A DNA stretch of 64,000 nucleotides from a virus: the IMG/VR virus record IMGVR_UViG_3300021512_000004, positions 10,741-74,740 of that record; one strand, given 5' to 3'. Shown here piece after piece: positions 42,148 through 61,704 of this stretch. Each line of letters opens with the position of its first letter. Position 1 is the stretch's first letter. The notes under the pieces were generated by a model. The model was given only the letters and a program-made list of their open reading frames with translations, was not told where the DNA came from and did no database searches. Made by a program: the position numbers and the translations under genes.

Positions 42148-43270
42148 ATGATTGATAAAGTAGTAATACAGCAGATTAATAAGTTCAAAGTCACTATAAA
42201 CGGCAAGACCTATGATAACTTTGAGAAAGTTGACGAGTGGAATGGGATGCTACATTTCACTGGGCCTAAAGGGATGATCATTGTCCATAAACCGGAAAAT
42301 ATGTTCGCTACGTTTGCAACTATCTTTGGAGGCAGTGATCAAGAGGTGCAGGAAGAGTTTGACCTGGCGAAAATATCATCAGACTTACTTAAAGATTCAA
42401 GGAATGTGGAGGGAGAAAAATGAGCGGAGGAGATTGGAATCGTATATTCAATGAGGTGGAAGACGCGGCGGAGAAATTAAAAGCTGAGAGATGCCCTTTG
42501 AGGAGGGCTTTCGGAGATCACTTAAGCTTGGTAGCGGAGGCATTACACCAAATAGAACTGGTTGACGGAGGGGATTCATCGAGTCCAGAGGATACTAACG
42601 CTATCAAAAAGGTCTATGGAGACATGGCGGAGTCTGTGGAGTTGGCGGCGTTGCGGGAAGATGCAGGAAAACTAATTAAAGAGTTGAGGAGGCTGGGAGG
42701 GTGAGGAGTTACAAGGGAAGGTCAATCAGAGACTTAGACAAGAAAGGTAATTATTACTCCAGACATATTGACGCTATGACGAGGGAGAAGCTTCATGGGA
42801 AGGCTGAAATTGCCGCTGAGTTAGCTCATAGGGATATGGTTATAGACACCTTAAAGGTGGGTAATGTTCAGCTGAATAAGTTCGTGAGTTACCTTTTGTC
42901 AGACAGGGAGGACTTGGACGACGAGTTTATTGCCTGCCAGAACAAAGAAGATCTTCTTAAAGTTATCGACACAGTTTAGAGGTAAGGGATAATGGAAAAC
43001 AAAGATTTAAGTCTACTTTGGGTAGGGGCTTTCAGGTATTACCTTGGAGGGCAGAACATAGCAGTACACAGCTTCTGTAGTCTGTTAATGGACGAGATAG
43101 ATGCCGGGAGGGTTCCAGACAATGCACAATTCGTCATTAAAAAGGGCTTGCTGGAGGCGTTTGCAGCGGACGATAAGGATCAAATGCGAGGATTTGATTC
43201 ATCTATTCTTGGACATAAAGTGGATAGAAGTAAGTGGCTGGAAGTTCTTGGGGCGTTGTCGGGAGGGTAG
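42148..43270 (+). CDS. Four small hypothetical genes (42148-42423, 42420-42704, 42701-42979, 42992-43270)
   Basis: Coupled ORFs with RBS. Confidence 0.55.
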
Positions 43271-43272
43271 CA

Positions 43273-43722
43273 ATGAAAGCAGAAGAGTTCGTAGCAGAGA
43301 GCAATAAAATAGAGCGGATAACTAGACCCCCGAAGCTTGTCGAGATACAGGAGCACGTAATATTCATCAACTTACCTGTTATCACCCTAAAGGATCTACT
43401 GCGATTTGTAGAGGTCTACCAACCAAATGCAAGGTTAAGGGATAAGTTCGGGCTAGATGTCTTAGTAGGGCATCACATGCCCCCTTTAGGCAGCCCAAAC
43501 ATGGGAAATCTGGTGGAGGAATTGCTAGACCAACAGGACGACCTATCAGCTTATGAACTCCATGTAAGGTACGAAAGCTTACACCCATTTACTGACTGCA
43601 ATGGACGAAGCGGGAGGGCTTTATGGGCGTGGAAAATGATGCAGACGGTAGGGCATTATAGCCTTGGATTCCTACATCACTTTTATTATCAGGCACTCGA
43701 TGCCAGTAGGGTTAACAAATGA
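43273..43722 (+). CDS. Fic-domain protein
   Basis: HPFTDCNGRSGR matches the Fic motif HPFxDGNGRxxR with G to C; GGAGG RBS before MKAEEF. Confidence 0.88.
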   Translation: MKAEEFVAESNKIERITRPPKLVEIQEHVIFINLPVITLKDLLRFVEVYQPNARLRDKFGLDVLVGHHMPPLGSPNMGNLVEELLDQQDDLSAYELHVRYESLHPFTDCNGRSGRALWAWKMMQTVGHYSLGFLHHFYYQALDASRVNK

Positions 43723-43822
43723 CGGACGAAATTATAATTTTCGGAGTTATTCTAATGTGTATATTGTTTGCTGGGGATCCAGACTTAATGGATGCAATTA
43801 TATCTTTAATAGAGTGTAACAA

Positions 43823-44581
43823 ATGAAAAACATACAATTGAAAATACTGAGTCCGCTAGTAGGAAATGAGTTCCCAATTCCAGCTTACTCAACAGAGGGA
43901 TCTGCCGGAATGGATCTCAGGGCCTGCATTGAGCAGGAAATGGCTGTCAGTAAAGGAAAAGCAGTCTTAATCCCTACTGGGGTAGCTATACACATAGAAG
44001 ACCCTGCATACGCTGCAGTAATCTTACCAAGATCAGGTCTGGGCCATAAGCATGGAGTAGTCCTTGGCAATCTGGTGGGGCTGATTGACAGTAAAAATCA
44101 TAGGTAAATTGCTGTCATTAAATTCGGTGAATTGCTGGGAAATCCTTAGAGTTCTTATACCAAAGCGGAACTGGAAACGGTAAACGTAACGGTTTGAAAA
44201 GTTAAGAAATTGGACAATCAGCAGCCAAGACCCTGAAAAGTGTAAAAGTATGGGTAAGGTTCAACGACTAGGTGTTGAGTTAGCTAGACGATACTACACC
44301 CACGAGCGCCGGACACTTAAATTAAGTGAAGATATAGTCTGAACTTTAGGGAAACTTAAAGAAACAAGGATAAAGAGCCTTGTGATAACACGATGGATTA
44401 CCAAGGACAGTTGATGATCTCCTGCTGGAATAGGAGCGATGTGAGCTACATAGTGAAGCCTGGGGAGCGCATAGCCCAGTTGATCATTGTTCCTGTAGTG
44501 CAGGCAGAATTTGAAGTGGTTGAGGAGTTTAGCCAGAGTCAAAGAGGGGAGGGAGGATTTGGCAGTACTGGAGTTTGTTAA
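43823..44581 (+). CDS. dut: Trimeric dUTPase, intron-split: exon 1 43823-44092, exon 2 44396-44581 (151 aa)
   Basis: Motifs GSAGMDL, PRSGLG, GLIDS|DYQG, RIAQL and [10 protein letters not shown]; removing 44093-44395 restores motif III exactly in frame. Confidence 0.95.
44093..44395 (+). ncRNA. Group I self-splicing intron (IA-like, 303 nt, no homing endonuclease)
   Basis: P element AATTGCTGGGAA, Q AATCAGCAGCC, R GTTCAACGACTA and S AAGATATAGTCT. P1 exon UGACAGU pairs with GCUGUCA giving the U-G wobble; terminal G; P3 TTCGGTG/CGCCGGA; a P7.1 hairpin, P8 CACTTA/TAAGTG and a GAAA-capped P9. Confidence 0.93.
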
Positions 44582-44602
44582 ATAACTGGAGAGGAGACAA
44601 AA

Positions 44603-44953
44603 ATGTTTGAGTACAGTGCAGAGGTTAAACGAGTCGTGGACGGAGACACCTATGACTTAGTAGTTGATCTAGGCTTCAACATAAAACATACGATCAGAGT
44701 ACGCCTTGACGGGATAGACACACCAGAGCTATTCCGACCTAGAAACTCAGCGGAGAGAAGCCACGCGGTTGAGGCTGCTGAGTTTGCGTCGAATCAGGTT
44801 CTGTCTAGATCTGTGATACTGCGAACCAAAAAGGACAAGACTGGAAAGTATGGAAGGTACATAGCCTCTATCCACTACGGTAGAAATTTTGAGTATGACT
44901 TAACCCAGGAGCTGATTTCCAATGGCTTTAGTAAGAGGGGGGAGTATTTATGA
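44603..44953 (+). CDS. Thermonuclease (SNase-like)
   Basis: VVDGDT, VRL.GIDTPE and GKYGRY motifs. Confidence 0.9.
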   Translation: MFEYSAEVKRVVDGDTYDLVVDLGFNIKHTIRVRLDGIDTPELFRPRNSAERSHAVEAAEFASNQVLSRSVILRTKKDKTGKYGRYIASIHYGRNFEYDLTQELISNGFSKRGEYL

Positions 44954-45219
44954 TCCGAGGAACAGAAAAAGAAGACATTCAAGCCCTACTAAGACAGGGG
45001 ATATGTGAAGTAGTATTCACTAAAAAGGACGGATCAGAGCGACAGATGAACTGTACTCTCGATCAGACGTTCCTGCCATTAGTTGACCAGGAGTCTACTG
45101 GAACCGCAACAGGAGAGCATGAAGGATTAGTGACTGTTTGGGATACCGATGCTGAAGGAGGGAGAAGAATAATTCTTGAGAATATTATTTACGGTCCTAA
45201 GCTCCTAACAGGAGAGTAG
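44950..45219 (+). CDS. WYL-like/SH3 beta-barrel protein
   Basis: V.F.KKDGS.R.M.CTL...VWD pattern. Confidence 0.7.
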   Translation: MIRGTEKEDIQALLRQGICEVVFTKKDGSERQMNCTLDQTFLPLVDQESTGTATGEHEGLVTVWDTDAEGGRRIILENIIYGPKLLTGE

Positions 45220-45281
45220 GGCCGCTCCCAAAGAGGGGTAGGAGCGGCCCTACTAACATTGGAACTCCGCAGAGGGGGACA

Positions 45282-45616
45282 AGGCGCTCTGCGGAGTAGA
45301 AAGTATACCTTACAGGTTATGTACGTTCAATAGGAGTGGAGTTATGGCAAGCATTTTTGTAATGACAGACCCTATGTCTGAAGTTTACTACTCGCTGAAG
45401 GATAATCGGGTTAGAAAGTTCAACCTTCATGGGAAAACGCTGTATGACGAATATAAAGGGGTTTCTGCGGAAGGGTGGGAGGATGCGCTAGTAAAGTTCG
45501 TGAAACAGCAGCGATTGAATATAGATGGAGGGGAAGGACTTCCCTCATTCGTGTACGGCCTGATTGATAGAGGACTGCTGGAAGACTAACAGGCGCTCTG
45601 CGGAGTAGAAAGTATA
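45282..45616 (+). repeat. 26-bp direct repeat flanking ORF 45344-45589
   Basis: AGGCGCTCTGCGGAGTAGAAAGTATA at 45282 and 45591. Confidence 0.85.
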
Positions 45617-46507
45617 TATCATAAGGTAGGAGGGAGCTAGAGATGAGGTATAAAACTGAAAATAAGCACATAGATGAGATTAGAAGCGGAGACTACGTGT
45701 TACATAATGAGGAGGTGGTAACTGTAGGGCGGAGGGATATAAAACTGAGCGAATTTATGGGAACAACTCTGTTCGGAGACTGCTATCACTTGGGAACAAA
45801 GCCAGTGAAAAAGGTGACAATCCTTGGGAGTGAAAGACTATGAGCATCAAAACAACATGTCAGAATGGACTGACACTATGATTGAGGACAAGATGGCGGA
45901 ACCGTTTTTCCGGCACAGTATGTTTAACAATTACACTCTGCCACGTTAGCTGAGTTGCTATCAATTACGGAGGGATAATTATGTGCTTGATAACCGACGT
46001 GTATGATGCTGGATACGACTGTAGTAAAAAGGAGAAAGGCTATAGCCCAGAAGGTAGCGCCGCAGTAGCCCTGGCAAAACATGAGATAGCCTGCCTGAAA
46101 CTTGAAAGCGAGGGTTATTTTGCAAAGATACAAAAGATGAGGGCTACTCTAGAGTTGACGAAGAGATCTATTATCGACAGGAGGCTTAATATGCCAGAGA
46201 CAATGGCCGTGATTGAGGAGGCTTTAGCCTCGCAGCGGTCGATTAAGCTACCATTTAATTTTGGATAAATCCACGGGGGTTGCAGATGAGACTAAAAATT
46301 AAACAGAGCCAGAATTTAAAAGAAGGGGAGGTAAGGGTTTGCAAAGGGTTTCTATGGTTGCCTAAATACCTGGATAGAGAGTGGAGGTGGCTTGAGTTTG
46401 CAGAATGGGCACAAATGACAATGCGACTACCCCCACTTGCGGTTGAAGTCGGTTGCTATTCCCCAGGGCAAACTCCCCTTCAATGGGTGAGTACGGAGTG
46501 GAGGTAA
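45344..46507 (+). CDS. Four small hypothetical genes (45344-45589, 45643-45843, 45981-46268, 46280-46507)
   Basis: ORFs with RBS-like sequences. Confidence 0.5.
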
Positions 46508-46644
46508 CCCCCGGGCTGGTTCCTTATAGTTGTAAATTTACTATTTGGAGCGTTAAACGTAAGGAATTTTACGCAGCTCTAACACCAGATTCAGCTGCGC
46601 GCTTGGCGCGTCCGCTGGAATTAATGTTAGATTGCGATTGATTT

Positions 46645-46884
46645 TTGGAGGATGAGAGAGTGGATAAAGCAAAAGAGATTCGCAGGGGATTTGTTGATAT
46701 TTGGAAATGGATAGGCTCGCCAGATTGTTGGTTTTTAATAATGGTTACGTTTTGCCTCTGGTGCATATTTTTAGCTCCAGAATCAGCTATCGCTGGGCTT
46801 GCGAATACATTTATTGTTATCGGGCTGGTTATAATTTGGCATTTGGCAAGAATCGCAAAATCCTTAGAGGACAAGGCAATCTAA
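46645..46884 (+). CDS. Cassette A gene: two-TM membrane protein
   Basis: Bounded by GTTAGATTGC...GCAATCTAAC; its stop is the TAA of TAAC. Confidence 0.7.
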   Translation: MEDERVDKAKEIRRGFVDIWKWIGSPDCWFLIMVTFCLWCIFLAPESAIAGLANTFIVIGLVIIWHLARIAKSLEDKAI

Positions 46885-46931
46885 CAACCAGCATAACGGG
46901 TGAGCGGATAATTTAACTGAGGATGGTGAGC

Positions 46932-47327
46932 ATGGAAAACCAGAACGAACAGAAGCAACAAGAAACCAGCGGTGAAGAAGCGAATCCGGTTGATGTAATT
47001 GTTAGTGCTCGCTGCCCGGACTGCGCTGCTCAGCCTGGCATGCTGCACAAGCTGGGCTGTGATGTTGAAAAATGCCCCGAATGCGGCTGGCAATATATCA
47101 GCTGTGACTGCCCCGCCGAAGAGACAACGGCTCCCCGCCTCCTCTGGTCTGGCGAATGGCCAGGGATAAGGGAGTGCCGCGAATTTGGATGGTATTCAAA
47201 ATTGGTTTCTGGGCGCGGCTGGGTGAGCTGTGACAAAAGCGAGCCTGGCGCAAGCGAGAGCCTCAACCGCCTTGCCGTTGACGCCACATGGGATAAAGAA
47301 AAAGGGCGCTACATACTAGAGAGCTAA
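46932..47327 (+). CDS. Cassette B gene: Cys-rich zinc-binding protein starting inside attC
   Basis: TGAGGA RBS and ATG lie within the attC loop; CPDC..H..GCD.E.CP.CG.Q..SC.C motif. Confidence 0.75.
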   Translation: MENQNEQKQQETSGEEANPVDVIVSARCPDCAAQPGMLHKLGCDVEKCPECGWQYISCDCPAEETTAPRLLWSGEWPGIRECREFGWYSKLVSGRGWVSCDKSEPGASESLNRLAVDATWDKEKGRYILES

Positions 47328-47398
47328 CGCTCGCATAAACTGCGGAGCGTCAGCGGAGTCAGATTTTCATGCGATTGTTATAAATCTGGAGTAGAACG

Positions 47399-47644
47399 AT
47401 GGCAACAAACAAATACGATTTGGACACAGCTTACATCGGAAAAAACCTTAAAATATTGCAGCGGGATATTGAGCAATATACCCCTCAAGAGATGAGGACA
47501 GCTTTGAACAAGCTGGCAGACACGTGCCATAACTTTGCTAAGTGCGGTCGCTGTAGCGGCTACAACACGTCAACGATGCGACACGATGCGGCTCACTGGT
47601 TTTGCTATGACTGCGCCGAGAAGTACCCACTAAAAGCCTTATAA
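47399..47644 (+). CDS. Cassette C gene: small protein with C-terminal zinc ribbon
   Basis: GGAG RBS; CGRC...CYDC; stop in TAAC. Confidence 0.7.
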   Translation: MATNKYDLDTAYIGKNLKILQRDIEQYTPQEMRTALNKLADTCHNFAKCGRCSGYNTSTMRHDAAHWFCYDCAEKYPLKAL

Positions 47645-47718
47645 CGCTCAATTAAACGGTTGCGTAGCAATCCGGTTTAAATTGCTTGTTATATTTAATA
47701 TTAATTCGGAGAAAAATC

Positions 47719-47967
47719 ATGAGTGAAATTGAAACAGTTGCAGCGAGTCTCACTATTGAAATGAATGTCACATGCCCTAATCCTGACTGCGGGGATTATA
47801 TAGATTTGCTGCGATCAGAGTATACGAACGGGGTGGATCATAATGAGGACGGGGGTTTGCTGCGCCAGATGTTCCCTGAAAATCATAGTAATGAAGATTT
47901 TGAGTGTGATGATGTCATTTGCACAAAATGCAAAACAATGTTCAATGTGCGCGAGCTGGAATGGTAG
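47719..47967 (+). CDS. Cassette D gene: zinc-ribbon protein
   Basis: GGAG RBS; CPNPDC...CTKC; bounded by GTTATATTTA...TAAATATAAC. Confidence 0.7.
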   Translation: MSEIETVAASLTIEMNVTCPNPDCGDYIDLLRSEYTNGVDHNEDGGLLRQMFPENHSNEDFECDDVICTKCKTMFNVRELEW

Positions 47968-48027
47968 TAAATATAACACCCTGCATAACGAGTGAGCGTG
48001 GACAACAAAATGAATGAGGTGAACACG

Positions 48028-48330
48028 ATGGGCAAGAACGAAGCCACGAAGACAGAACCCAGCGGCGAAGAAGCGAATCCAGTTGATGCACTTGTTATGC
48101 GGCAACTAGATAAAATCACTGGATATTTTCAGCCTAAACGCACGGAAACGCTGCGCGATGAAGCCCTGCCATTTGTTGGTCGGCTATTAACATTCGAGGC
48201 TCTTTGGCTGATAGATAAAGAAGATGGGGGCCCTTACGTCGGACAATGGGCGATGCGCCCGATTAATGAAGCAGGGGGCTGGTTGCCAATTGGGTGGGTT
48301 CCCGAAGAAGACATTAGACCTGCTACATAA
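48028..48330 (+). CDS. Cassette E gene: hypothetical protein starting inside attC
   Basis: GAGGTG RBS and ATG inside the attC loop; leader SGEEANPVD shared with cassette B. Confidence 0.7.
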   Translation: MGKNEATKTEPSGEEANPVDALVMRQLDKITGYFQPKRTETLRDEALPFVGRLLTFEALWLIDKEDGGPYVGQWAMRPINEAGGWLPIGWVPEEDIRPAT

Positions 48331-48412
48331 CACCCGATTCAGCTGCGCGTTTGGCGCGTCCGCTGGAATTAATGTTAGATTGCTAATTAATTAATTATGG
48401 GGCGATAACGAG

Positions 48413-48601
48413 ATGGCCGAAGTGAAGTTCTGGTGTGACAGCGGGGCAAACATCCATTCTTGCAATACTGAAACAGTTGATACCGTTGATGATTTAGGGT
48501 TAGACGAAGGGGAGTGGGAAAAGCTCACTGATGACGAAAGGCACAAGCATGTTAGGGATTGGGCTAATAACTACATAGAGATGGGGTGGGCAGCAATCTA
48601 A
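48413..48601 (+). CDS. Cassette F gene: small acidic protein
   Basis: Bounded by GTTAGATTGC...GCAATCTAAC. Confidence 0.7.
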   Translation: MAEVKFWCDSGANIHSCNTETVDTVDDLGLDEGEWEKLTDDERHKHVRDWANNYIEMGWAAI

Positions 48602-48643
48602 CGCCCACATAAGCGACTTGATGTGATTGTTATAAATGAAACT

Positions 48644-48808
48644 ATGAAAAAGTATATTTGCGTTAGGTGTTTAACCGTAATGAGCCGGGTTGAGCTTAGA
48701 GACGGAGCAAAACTTAAAAAGATTTCTATTGAGTTAAGCCGGAAAATTAAAATGTGCAAGTCTTGCACATGCCGGACTTTCTATAGTATTTAATTTGGGA
48801 GCAAGTAA
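48644..48808 (+). CDS. Cassette G gene (cassette end lost): 54-aa zinc-finger-like protein
   Basis: Manual translation MKKYICVRC...MCKSCTCRTFYSINLGSK. Confidence 0.5.
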
Positions 48809-48985
48809 ACGTAAGTAAAAAGACAGTTTTGAATGCTCCGAAGGTGAGCGTAGAGATAACTATTGTGTATATTGCAATGGGAAATATCGAGGTGTCCAGA
48901 GCATTACGACAATCACGAACAATCTAAGAAAGGCGCTACCGTCTTTCAAGGCAACATAATTAGATTGTTTTAAAGAGGGTAAAAT

Positions 48986-49273
48986 ATGGGAAAAGTTTTA
49001 AAGTTCAAACGAAAGGTTTCATTCTCAAAGGAGAAGATGATCTCTGCAAATCCTAACGTAAAGGTAAAAGAAGAGGAGATGGAGATTTATCAAGAATTTG
49101 GAAAGGTTTACGCAGATGTATTCGTAAAGCCTCATGGGTTCTACTCCGGGGCGTTCTTATTAAACGAAAACACCTTGAAGATAGAGGAGATGGTGAGCCT
49201 CCTGCCAAGGAGGTTCTTCCTGTCACAGGTCAGGGCAGCCCAGGAAAAGTGTTGGGCGAAAGATTGGATTTAA
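48986..49273 (+). CDS. Hypothetical protein
   Basis: GAGG RBS. Confidence 0.55.
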   Translation: MGKVLKFKRKVSFSKEKMISANPNVKVKEEEMEIYQEFGKVYADVFVKPHGFYSGAFLLNENTLKIEEMVSLLPRRFFLSQVRAAQEKCWAKDWI

Positions 49274-49301
49274 ATTGCAAGATGTAATAGTATAACCTTT
49301 C

Positions 49302-49799
49302 ATGCGAGTATTGGAGATTAACATGGTGGACAAAGTAAACAACCCTTTAACACGGCAAGACTTTACAACTGGAACCTTACCTGGGGAGGTAGCCAAAGAC
49401 GGTGAGGAGATTGGAGGAGTTAGTAGAACTTTGTTAGGGGCGGAAACCATCAAGGCTAAGGACGTAGCTGAGTTTGAAAGAAAGGAAGAGTTCGAGCCTG
49501 TAAGGAAGTCATCACCGTCAAAGATTTTTTACAATCAGTTAGCCGAGTCTTTGAATAAAATGAAAGTAGGGGATATACTCTTGTTCCCTCTACCTGAGAA
49601 CATGCTTGCTCATAACTTAAAGAAAGTTATGAGCAACAGAGGGGCAAGGGACGGAGTAGATATCCAGTATGGTAGAGCAAGGAAAGACTTCCAAGGAAGG
49701 ACTCTACCAATGAAGCTACGACCGATGACAGTAAAGAAGCTGACAGCCTGCATCATCACAGTGTTCCCATTAGCAGTCAAAAACAAAGTCAAAGAGTAG
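49302..49799 (+). CDS. Hypothetical basic protein
   Basis: GGAG RBS before MVDKVN. Confidence 0.55.
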   Translation: MRVLEINMVDKVNNPLTRQDFTTGTLPGEVAKDGEEIGGVSRTLLGAETIKAKDVAEFERKEEFEPVRKSSPSKIFYNQLAESLNKMKVGDILLFPLPENMLAHNLKKVMSNRGARDGVDIQYGRARKDFQGRTLPMKLRPMTVKKLTACIITVFPLAVKNKVKE

Positions 49800-60175: not shown

Positions 60176-60676
60176 ATGGTTAGCAGAAAAGAAGCGCAAG
60201 AAAGAGGGAAGAAGTTTGAGGATGAGATTGGGATATTCCTAAAAGCCCTTGAGCAGAGGAACCCATGCAAATGTCACAGAATCTACGACTCAAGATCTGC
60301 AGGTAACTACCTGCCAAATCAGCCAGGGGACTACTACTTCTTCAGGCCTGGAGGATCAGTGTTGATTGAGTGTAAGTCTAGCTCAATACACTCCTCTCTG
60401 TGCGGCAATAGAAAAGCTATGACCGACTTGATAGGGAGGGATCAAGCAGCACACATGAGACTACACAAGAGAGCAGGAGGAGTCTCCCTGTATATTTTTG
60501 AGAACCAGGAAAACCGAACCTACGAGGTTTGGGAGGGGGCAGAGGTGGCGAAAGCCTTGGCCACCCCAAGGAAGCTACCAGACCGAACCCATGTAGTGGA
60601 AGTAAGGTGCCTTAACGACCTGAAGGATTTTCTAAGGTCCTCAATGCTGTTTGAAGATTACTTTGGGGGTTCCTAA
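60176..60676 (+). CDS. Holliday junction resolvase-like PD-(D/E)XK nuclease
   Basis: RG..FE, PGD...IECKS. Confidence 0.7.
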   Translation: MVSRKEAQERGKKFEDEIGIFLKALEQRNPCKCHRIYDSRSAGNYLPNQPGDYYFFRPGGSVLIECKSSSIHSSLCGNRKAMTDLIGRDQAAHMRLHKRAGGVSLYIFENQENRTYEVWEGAEVAKALATPRKLPDRTHVVEVRCLNDLKDFLRSSMLFEDYFGGS

Positions 60677-61704
60677 TGACACTTCTTATATATTCAGATC
60701 CGCACCTTGGGATGGAACTAAAGTCGCACACTACACCACAGTCAAGGATAAAGTTGAGAGATAAATTGTGCAGTCACGCGACAGAAATGATACCTAAGTT
60801 TTATGAAGATGGGGATATAGTCTGCGCTGGAGACTTCTTCCACAAGCCTCATAACTGTGAGGAGGTCATCAAACAGTCCCTGCACCTATTTCACATGACA
60901 GCCATCCTGTTAGAAGGAAACCACGACACTCCAAATATAGTAGATCAATCCTACACCTTGGATTTACTGTCCCAGATTTCTAGGGGGAAGGTTGAGGGGG
61001 GAGCTGTGAGGAGGTGTGGAGATTCCCTGTACACGGTTCCTCATCAGCTGACCCAGGAAGCCTTTGAACAAGGGTTGGAGGAGGCAATGAGATTAGCAGA
61101 GGAGGATCGACATCTTCCAGGAGATAAGATTCTAATCACCCATTGCAACTATGATAGGGAGTTTGCAAAAGACGACTCATCCTTGTTGATGACTAGAGGC
61201 GATGCAGAGATTCTTCTTGAGTCATTTTCCTACGTCATTCTAGGGCATGAACATGAACCGAGGGAAGATTTTGATGGTCGTCTCATTGTAGTTGGCAGTA
61301 CCCACCCAACTAACTTTGGAGATATTGGCGACAAGAGGATAATCCTGATTGACGACGAGGGTGTGGTGTCATCAAAGACTGTTTGGGAGCAGGAGGGGAA
61401 ATACTTTGAATTAGATGTAGGAACTTTGAATGACGTAGACCTCCCTGACACGGCAAACTTCATAAGAATAAAAGGGACGGTAAAAGCCGAGCAGATTTAT
61501 GAGGTGTCCAAGTCAATAAAGAGACTATGGAAAGAGCTACCCAACGTCTACGCCATAAGGTCGGACGTGAAGATAGAGTCCCCAGACTGTCTGGAGACAG
61601 ACTTAAAAACTAGAGGAAGAGTGTCGATCAAAGAACGTATAACTGCTGATTTAGAGGGAATCCCTTCTCTCCTGGCCATGTGGAACGAGGTGACTTGTGA
61701 TTAG
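60676..61704 (+). CDS. SbcD/Mre11-like metallophosphoesterase nuclease
   Basis: SDPHLG, GDFF, GNHD and LGHEH. Confidence 0.9.
   Translation: MTLLIYSDPHLGMELKSHTTPQSRIKLRDKLCSHATEMIPKFYEDGDIVCAGDFFHKPHNCEEVIKQSLHLFHMTAILLEGNHDTPNIVDQSYTLDLLSQISRGKVEGGAVRRCGDSLYTVPHQLTQEAFEQGLEEAMRLAEEDRHLPGDKILITHCNYDREFAKDDSSLLMTRGDAEILLESFSYVILGHEHEPREDFDGRLIVVGSTHPTNFGDIGDKRIILIDDEGVVSSKTVWEQEGKYFELDVGTLNDVDLPDTANFIRIKGTVKAEQIYEVSKSIKRLWKELPNVYAIRSDVKIESPDCLETDLKTRGRVSIKERITADLEGIPSLLAMWNEVTCD

Follow-up and report, generated by a model that had tools for sequence, protein, structure and literature searches.

A phage dut gene broken in the middle of motif III by 303 nucleotides raises two questions: how a complete dUTPase could be made from it, and what kind of element the intervening sequence is. 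The gene lies in a stretch of 64,000 nucleotides, which we call the window, comprising bases 10741 to 74740 of a 74,740-bp IMG/VR virus record that was assembled from a metagenome and is estimated to be 90% complete. An earlier note, made from the letters of this DNA, had read the insertion as a group I intron. We find that it is very probably a bona fide, subgroup IA-like group I intron of the dUTPase gene and a member of a wider lineage, most likely in an endonuclease-deleted form.

The genome encodes a terminase, head protease, major head protein, primase, helicase and ligase, together with a family A-type DNA polymerase, SbcCD-like nucleases and a tape measure protein longer than 1,507 amino acids. 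Because of this gene content, and of a capsid protein 38–39% identical to those of Vibrio phage SHOU24 and Pseudomonas phage PMBT3, the virus appears to be an uncultured siphovirus of about 75 kb whose host is probably a gammaproteobacterium.

The dut gene is divided at a codon boundary in motif III

The gene and the landmarks of its interruption are as follows (window coordinates).

43823–44092, + strand: dut exon 1, 90 codons, with motifs I and II and the first half of motif III, ending GLIDS (PF00692, E 5.6e-15, profile positions 2–70)
44093–44395, + strand: group I intron of 303 nt without an endonuclease ORF (RF00028 match; covariation on alignment A1)
44105–44107, + strand: in-frame TAA that ends translation of the unspliced mRNA (ORF 43820–44107, ending ...GLIDSKNHR)
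44395, + strand: terminal guanosine (omega G) at the 3' splice site
44396–44581, + strand: dut exon 2, starting DYQG, with the second half of motif III, motifs IV and V and the stop codon (PF00692, E 4e-16, profile positions 71–129)

Exon 1 ends ...GGG CTG ATT GAC AGT at 44092, the intron ends ...ACGATG, and exon 2 starts GAT TAC CAA GGA. Three observations place the junction at 44092/44396: the 129 positions of the Pfam dUTPase profile are shared out between the exons with a seamless join at 70/71; the tblastn matches of the two exons abut without a gap in nine of nine phage dut genes from IMG/VR that have no intron; and the closest full-length Dut proteins in a collection of 5.8 billion proteins are 151 amino acids long, equal to the 90 + 61 codons found here. 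Removal of the intron restores the reading frame at the codon boundary GLIDS|DYQG, so the exact split proposed in the earlier note agrees with both the profile and the homologues, and the G44395 and the stop at 44107 that it had listed are both present. All five dUTPase motifs are kept across the two exons, neither of which contains a frameshift or a stop. Identity to the closest Dut proteins is 70–77%, and those that are named come from gammaproteobacteria. The gene itself was not found in a spliced or intron-less form, 77% being the identity of the best full-length match.

Read without splicing, the frame continues past exon 1 for four intron codons (K N H R) and then meets the TAA. Stops occur in all frames of the insertion, and the longest stop-to-stop frame wholly inside it has 50 codons. 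Unspliced RNA would give a dead fragment of 94 amino acids, and production of the dUTPase would therefore depend on splicing. Gene callers cut dut into fragments of 94 and 55 amino acids.

In all nine aligned dut introns the final residue is a G that immediately precedes the D/G-Y codons. The last three bases of the window intron, 44393–44395, read ATG in frame with exon 2; among the nine 3' ends ATG occurs in six, TTG in two and AAG in one. This preference may reflect descent or a P9.0-type constraint, and we found no evidence that the terminal ATG is used as a start codon.

We also looked for genes split at the intron site among dUTPase proteins of the size of exon 2. The search gave 1,540 matches at E 1e-5 or better; the best 120, which were listed, contain no fragment split at the site and are truncated genes with an intact motif III. 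Two fragments on long contigs, P0233 and P0139, have unrelated N-terminal residues fused right before LIDSDYQG. They may represent other insertions, a few codons upstream of the intron site, in dut genes of cellular type.

The ribozyme core is intact and covaries

When the 64-kb window was scanned with the Rfam covariance models, RF00028 was the sole family to exceed its threshold, and a scan of the whole record returned the same match. It extends from 44064 to 44361 (101.9 bits, E 2.8e-25, model positions 1–253) and scores about twice the gathering score of 50 bits. The P/Q/R/S-type core that had been recognised by inspection is thus recovered by a covariance model, with the following helices.

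44123–44129, + strand: P3 5' strand, partner 44307–44313 (helix 1: seven pairs, three compensatory, 98% paired)
44133–44223, + strand: P4 (44133–44138 with 44218–44223) around P5 (44143–44145 with 44212–44214) and a P5 extension of about 65 nt with a GAAA loop (Rfam alignment; helices 2–3)
44224–44260, + strand: P6 and P6a (helices 4–6)
44266–44270, + strand: P7 5' strand GACTA, partner 44335–44339, TAGTC (invariant helix 7; Rfam consensus)
44272–44304, + strand: P7.1/P7.2 hairpins between P7 and the P3 3' strand (helices 8–9; helix 8 compensatory at four of four pairs)
44314–44328, + strand: P8 hairpin (helix 10: compensatory at five of five pairs)
44344–44382, + strand: P9, with a GAAA-type loop, and P9.1 hairpins (helices 11–12: 11 of 13 pairs compensatory)

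We scored covariation on an alignment of seven dut intron cores (A1), adding the canonical P7 to the RNAalifold structure beforehand. In this alignment 91.9% of cells are paired, as against 30–45% when the partners are slid; 29 of the 56 core pairs have changed on both sides, and none of 500 shuffles reaches any of the observed covariation measures. RNAalifold itself recovers P3, P4, P5, P6, P7.1/7.2, P8, P9 and P9.1, and the P3–P8 core is present with its P3/P7 pseudoknot. P4 and P7, the latter of which we take to be the guanosine-binding helix, are invariant in the aligned introns and hence uninformative for covariation. The minimum-free-energy (MFE) z-score of the single sequence, −1.73, is not supportive alone; such modest values are usual for pseudoknotted ribozymes.

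Two computed elements were set aside. RNAalifold paired columns 255–261 of A1 with 342–348, that is, the P7 3' strand with the terminal G and the first six bases of exon 2. This helix is mismatched in the window's own sequence and probably arises because two segments are conserved independently of each other; the canonical P7 took its place. A second RF00028 match at 61363–61604 scores 22.9 bits, below gathering, and lies within an intact SbcD-like metallophosphatase ORF (60676–61704); we regard it as a chance match.

P7.1 and P7.2 hairpins are a trait of subgroup IA. On account of these hairpins we call the intron subgroup IA-like, possibly IA2-like, as a provisional label.

The guide sequence matches the codons of its own gene

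Close to the 5' splice site we identify three further elements.

44086–44092, + strand: P1 5' strand, the last seven nucleotides of exon 1 (TGACAGT), with U44092 as the splice-site U (complementarity to 44111–44117; MFE fold; covariation)
44111–44117, + strand: internal guide sequence GCTGTCA, the P1 3' strand (complementarity; MFE fold; covariation)
44103–44109, + strand: P10 segment just 5' of the guide, able to pair with the 5' end of exon 2 at 44397–44402 (pairing tracked in relatives)

The P1 with a U·G splice pair that had been claimed for this intron, formed by U44092 and G44111, appears in the MFE fold of the window intron and has a counterpart in each relative in which it can be read: P1 has seven base pairs with the splice-site U·G in all five dut introns for which both strands are available. 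Across these five the guide follows the exon at three positions, with G-C and C-G pairs at −2, A-U, G-C, G·U and U-A at −3, and U-A, A-U and C-G at −7. The window guide is complementary to the codons of its own exon, including an unusual AGT serine codon, and these codons differ from those of the relatives. A hairpin labelled 'P1' in the Rfam alignment lies inside exon 1 (44068–44086) and is unrelated to the true P1.

P10 is less clear-cut. In the relatives the segment upstream of the guide pairs with exon 2 nucleotides +2 to +9 over 4–8 bp and changes with the exon. The earlier note had proposed a pairing of GGTAA with TTACC, and these segments (44103–44107 and 44398–44402) are indeed complementary over 5 bp; the pairing is, however, shifted by one base from the register of the relatives, in which the window sequence forms 3 bp. 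A window P10 with a bulged A is plausible, not proven.

These features bear on two ways in which the locus might mislead. Since the record is a metagenome-assembled virus, an assembly error might have joined a foreign intron into dut. The guide and P10 are nevertheless complementary to the flanking exons of this very gene, AGT codon included, and the insertion is base-exact at a known homing site, which together make the chance of such an artefact negligible. The other concern is decay: dut may be a pseudogene and its intron a relic that no longer splices. The terminase of this phage has no relative in IMG/VR above 56% identity, and of 11 terminase relatives (at most 56% identity, four of them complete) none contains a gene for dUTPase or an intron of group I. 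Within this phage group the gene and its intron are thus accessory, and the dispensability of dut speaks for decay. Features of the locus itself argue the other way: all core helices are intact and the covariance-model score is double the gathering threshold, the guide matches this genome's exon codons, which differ from those of the relatives, and the undamaged exons retain all motifs and strong Pfam scores. We consider a dead relic very unlikely.

One intron lineage occupies the same dut site in other phages

We searched IMG/VR for other dut genes with an intron at this site, using a pattern in which the conserved J8/7–P7 element is followed after 40–70 nt by G and the codons D-Y-R/Q-G. It returned nine loci, seven of which (L050, L051, L053, L055, L056, L057 and L058) are dUTPase genes with exon 2 starting exactly there. 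A further pattern, which combined the P9.1 loop with the intron 3' end, added the dut introns L275, L313–L315, L317, L318 and L320, and the first pattern found two more, L087 and L143, in metagenome contigs. The 24 pattern matches obtained at that stringency in 185,579 representative prokaryote genomes include no dUTPase gene, and so no cellular dut with the intron.

Where exon 1 of a relative is on the contig, it ends ...ID-A right before the intron. The motif III codon boundary is identical in L050, L051, L056 and the crAss-like phage cr50_1; in the other same-site members the exon-2 side alone was read, and exon 2 begins at the same D-Y codons. Alignments A1 and A2 give core identities of 59–74%, and the introns have the P9.1 and 3'-terminal sequence in common.

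In the GenBank genomes of the crAss-like phages cr1_1 and cr50_1, one region matches the L050 core at 80–84% identity. In cr50_1 (MT774375.1, Crassvirales) two CDSs annotated as 'dUTPase' stand on either side of a 'putative intron-encoded HNH endonuclease [crAssphage_NC_024711]', and the junction that we read from the sequence, VIDC|GYKGE, falls at the same codon boundary as in the window. A published account (PMC7551546) has the dUTPase gene of crAssphage interrupted by an intron that encodes an HNH endonuclease. The earlier note knew of no phage group I introns in dUTPase genes; both host gene and site are in fact already known from crAss-like phages.

The crAss-like and window introns share the host gene, the boundary ID-x|D/G-Y in motif III, a homologous core (59–66% identity over about 240 aligned nucleotides), a 7-bp P1 with the U·G pair, the order of helices and the P9.1 loop sequence. 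They differ in size and content: the crAss-type introns are 842–1092 nt long and have a zinc-finger/HNH_3 ORF in the P1 loop, whereas the window intron, at 303 nt, has an 18-nt loop and no ORF. The window intron also has the P5 extension, which the crAss-type clade is without, and it interrupts a gammaproteobacterial-type dut in a siphovirus unrelated to crAss-like phages. Its nearest relatives, L275 (IMGVR_UViG_3300022494_000106) and L143 (JAEIGA010740054.1), are unpublished dut introns with cores 74.4% and 70.4% identical to that of the window; they occupy the same site, have the same P5 extension of about 65 nt and belong to one clade with it, although their dut exons are very different from the window's.

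The structural modules of these introns recur beyond dut. The P4–P5-extension motif occurs on more than 116 IMG/VR contigs and in many other genes; among 116 fetched loci L275 alone was a dut intron, and the module is widespread among phage introns. The P9.1 and 3'-terminal module is likewise not unique to dut, being found in 7 of 80 introns of other genes. The dut introns are therefore a branch of a large phage intron family, a branch defined by its target site and its P1-loop endonuclease. A scan of IMG/VR for the guide combined with a P4 motif gave 34 loci, none near a dUTPase gene, and was abandoned, a heptamer guide being too short for specificity.

Related introns turned up in two other settings. 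On the metagenome contigs L124, L141 and L157 an exon with the start DYKG follows the same 3' pattern. By eye it resembles the 5'-3' exonuclease domain of a DNA polymerase I, so that polA-type genes may contain related group I introns. A 73-kb phage genome with an intact dut, probably N4-like (L012, IMGVR_UViG_3300045988_020372), has a group I intron at 887–1731 (RF00028, 55.9 bits) with an HNH_3 ORF after the P3 3' strand. This intron interrupts what by eye resembles an AAA-ATPase gene about 2.2 kb from dut, and its core elements closely resemble those of the window intron.

The P1 loop has no endonuclease gene

There is no ORF of at least 60 amino acids inside the 303-nt intron. A search of the 74.7-kb record gave no match to HNH, HNH_3, GIY-YIG or LAGLIDADG_3, and Pfam scans of 13 ORFs, covering most of 42148–49799, found no homing-endonuclease family near dut. 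The absence of a homing endonuclease from intron and window, asserted earlier from inspection, is thus confirmed for these families. The window copy neither encodes nor adjoins a homing endonuclease of these families with which it could home autonomously, its neighbours being Fic/DOC, SNase and WYL_2 genes.

The relatives look different. Every one whose 5' part is on the contig has a zinc-finger/HNH ORF in the P1 loop, downstream of the 5' splice site and ahead of the guide, and the distance from splice site to guide is 603–844 nt in these HNH-bearing introns as against 18 nt in the window. Against an HNH_3 cut-off of 24.8 bits their ORFs score 35.0 (L051), 33.6 (L056) and 36.8 (L275), with L050 just under the cut-off at 23.0. 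In L275 the HNH_3 ORF ends in the P10 segment. The HNH ORFs of L050 and L051 overlap P10, the guide sequence, P3 and P4, and in L056 (6168–7154, minus strand) the HNH ORF has a stop-free frame of 345 codons from stop to stop, which crosses the whole ribozyme core and ends shortly before the 3' splice site.

In a maximum-likelihood tree of nine cores the window intron groups with L275 and L143 (support 100/99). L275, the nearest relative, bears an HNH ORF, and the other clade also contains HNH-bearing members. The two clades have the HNH ORF at one and the same place, which makes loss from the window copy the simpler history. We consider it quite probable that the intron lost its HNH gene, given a tree of nine thinly sampled cores in which the 5' part of L143 is missing. 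With the site and the homologous core of the motif III dut lineage but without the HNH_3 ORF in its P1 loop, the window copy is likelier to be an endonuclease-less derivative of the crAssphage-type dut lineage.

The reverse history would make the endonuclease-free form ancestral and place the arrival of an HNH gene in the P1 loop after it. It draws some strength from the loop itself, whose 18 nt contain no recognisable remnant of an HNH ORF, and from the P5 extension, which is found in the window intron and its two nearest relatives, not in the crAss-type introns, and so marks the clades as distinct. The contig of L143, one of the two nearest relatives, is cut 8 nt before the guide sequence, short of the place of an HNH ORF. 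Yet the nearest relative has its HNH ORF in the same place, as do the examined members of the other clade, and a single loss is simpler than two or more separate events that put homologous ORFs into the same spot. We therefore regard an ancestral endonuclease-free form as unlikely and continue with loss as the favoured history.

Genes around dut and the possibility of mobility in trans

An SNase-family nuclease gene (44603–44953; Pfam PF00565, E 1.2e-9; PHROG 452 'endonuclease', E 4.2e-29) begins 24 nt downstream of dut, and by eye its product keeps a D-T-P-E active-site stretch. It is followed by a gene for a WYL_2 protein (44950–45219). Directly upstream of dut lies a Fic/DOC-family gene (43234–43722; PF02661, 24.9 bits, barely above the cut-off). 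None of these neighbours is shared with nine other dut genes, compared over 2.5 kb to either side. The cultured phages with the closest dut are, as we recognise them, N4-like; those nine loci, the first to be retrieved, therefore probably belong to N4-like phages and were dropped as relatives of the genome.

Reportedly, Bonocora and Shub described in 2009 an endonuclease-free intron in the gene that encodes the DNA polymerase of T7-like phage PhiI and proposed a model of 'collaborative homing', in which a neighbouring HNH homing endonuclease is said to cut intron-less alleles. The window intron resembles that of PhiI in that it is a group I intron without an ORF and has a nuclease gene close by; its neighbour belongs to the SNase family. 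Could the intron still be mobile through a nuclease supplied in trans, either the adjacent SNase-family enzyme or the HNH protein of a co-infecting phage? A nuclease gene does adjoin the intron-bearing gene, and the same dut site is recognised in nature by related introns that bear HNH genes. But nothing ties the SNase gene to dut at the nine dut loci just described, and the HNH-bearing relatives reside in very different phages, which makes co-infection unlikely. SNase-type enzymes are non-specific nucleases, and the family is not known to include homing endonucleases. We judge continued mobility in trans highly improbable. The broader proposition that the 303-nt copy either is the form that preceded HNH invasion or is still spreading by means of a trans nuclease such as the SNase gene product seems to us distinctly unlikely. 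Our preferred reading remains an intron of the dut lineage that has lost its endonuclease gene and that would at present be immobile.

A proposed splicing pathway for the dut message

From an intact, co-adapted ribozyme and undamaged exons we infer that the intron is self-splicing. P1 would form between the last seven bases of exon 1 and the guide, which lies 18 nt into the intron, with the U·G pair at the point of cleavage. An exogenous guanosine, bound by P7, would then attack after U44092, after which G44395 would take over the binding site and exon 1 would attack after G44395, with help from a short P10. The ligated message, ...GLIDS-DYQG..., would encode the complete 151-amino acid dUTPase.

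On an evolutionary scale, the intron lineage targets a single motif III codon boundary in very different phages, crAss-like ones among them. The zinc-finger/HNH homing endonuclease gene that is usual in the P1 loop of this lineage has most likely been deleted here, leaving the window intron as a non-autonomous passenger, retained because splicing works.

The best-known phage introns offer a close parallel. Those of the T4 genes td, nrdB and nrdD (sunY), like other phage introns of subgroup IA in nucleotide-metabolism genes, are group I introns of the self-splicing type that interrupt genes of deoxynucleotide metabolism at conserved active-site motifs, and they have P7.1/P7.2 hairpins and an early in-frame intron stop, as does the window intron. 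The host gene differs from dut, and the GIY-YIG or HNH ORFs of the T4 introns are looped out from peripheral helices other than P1.

Implications

The dut intron does not overturn current understanding. What the window presents is a minimal, 303-nt, endonuclease-free form, in a gammaproteobacterial-type dut and in a phage group that is otherwise without dut. For annotation the consequence is practical, since with dut called as fragments the phage would be scored as having no intact dUTPase. For the intron family, a single lineage recurs at one active-site codon boundary of dUTPase in viruses ranging from crAss-like phages to a siphovirus, with its guide sequence re-tuned to the codons of each host gene. 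The 303-nt copy, together with its close HNH-bearing relatives, could serve as a model for the cycle of gain and loss of homing endonucleases. If instead the ancestral or the trans-mobile reading were true, these introns would show, as a natural before-and-after pair, how mobile introns are assembled from ORF-less introns and free-standing endonucleases.
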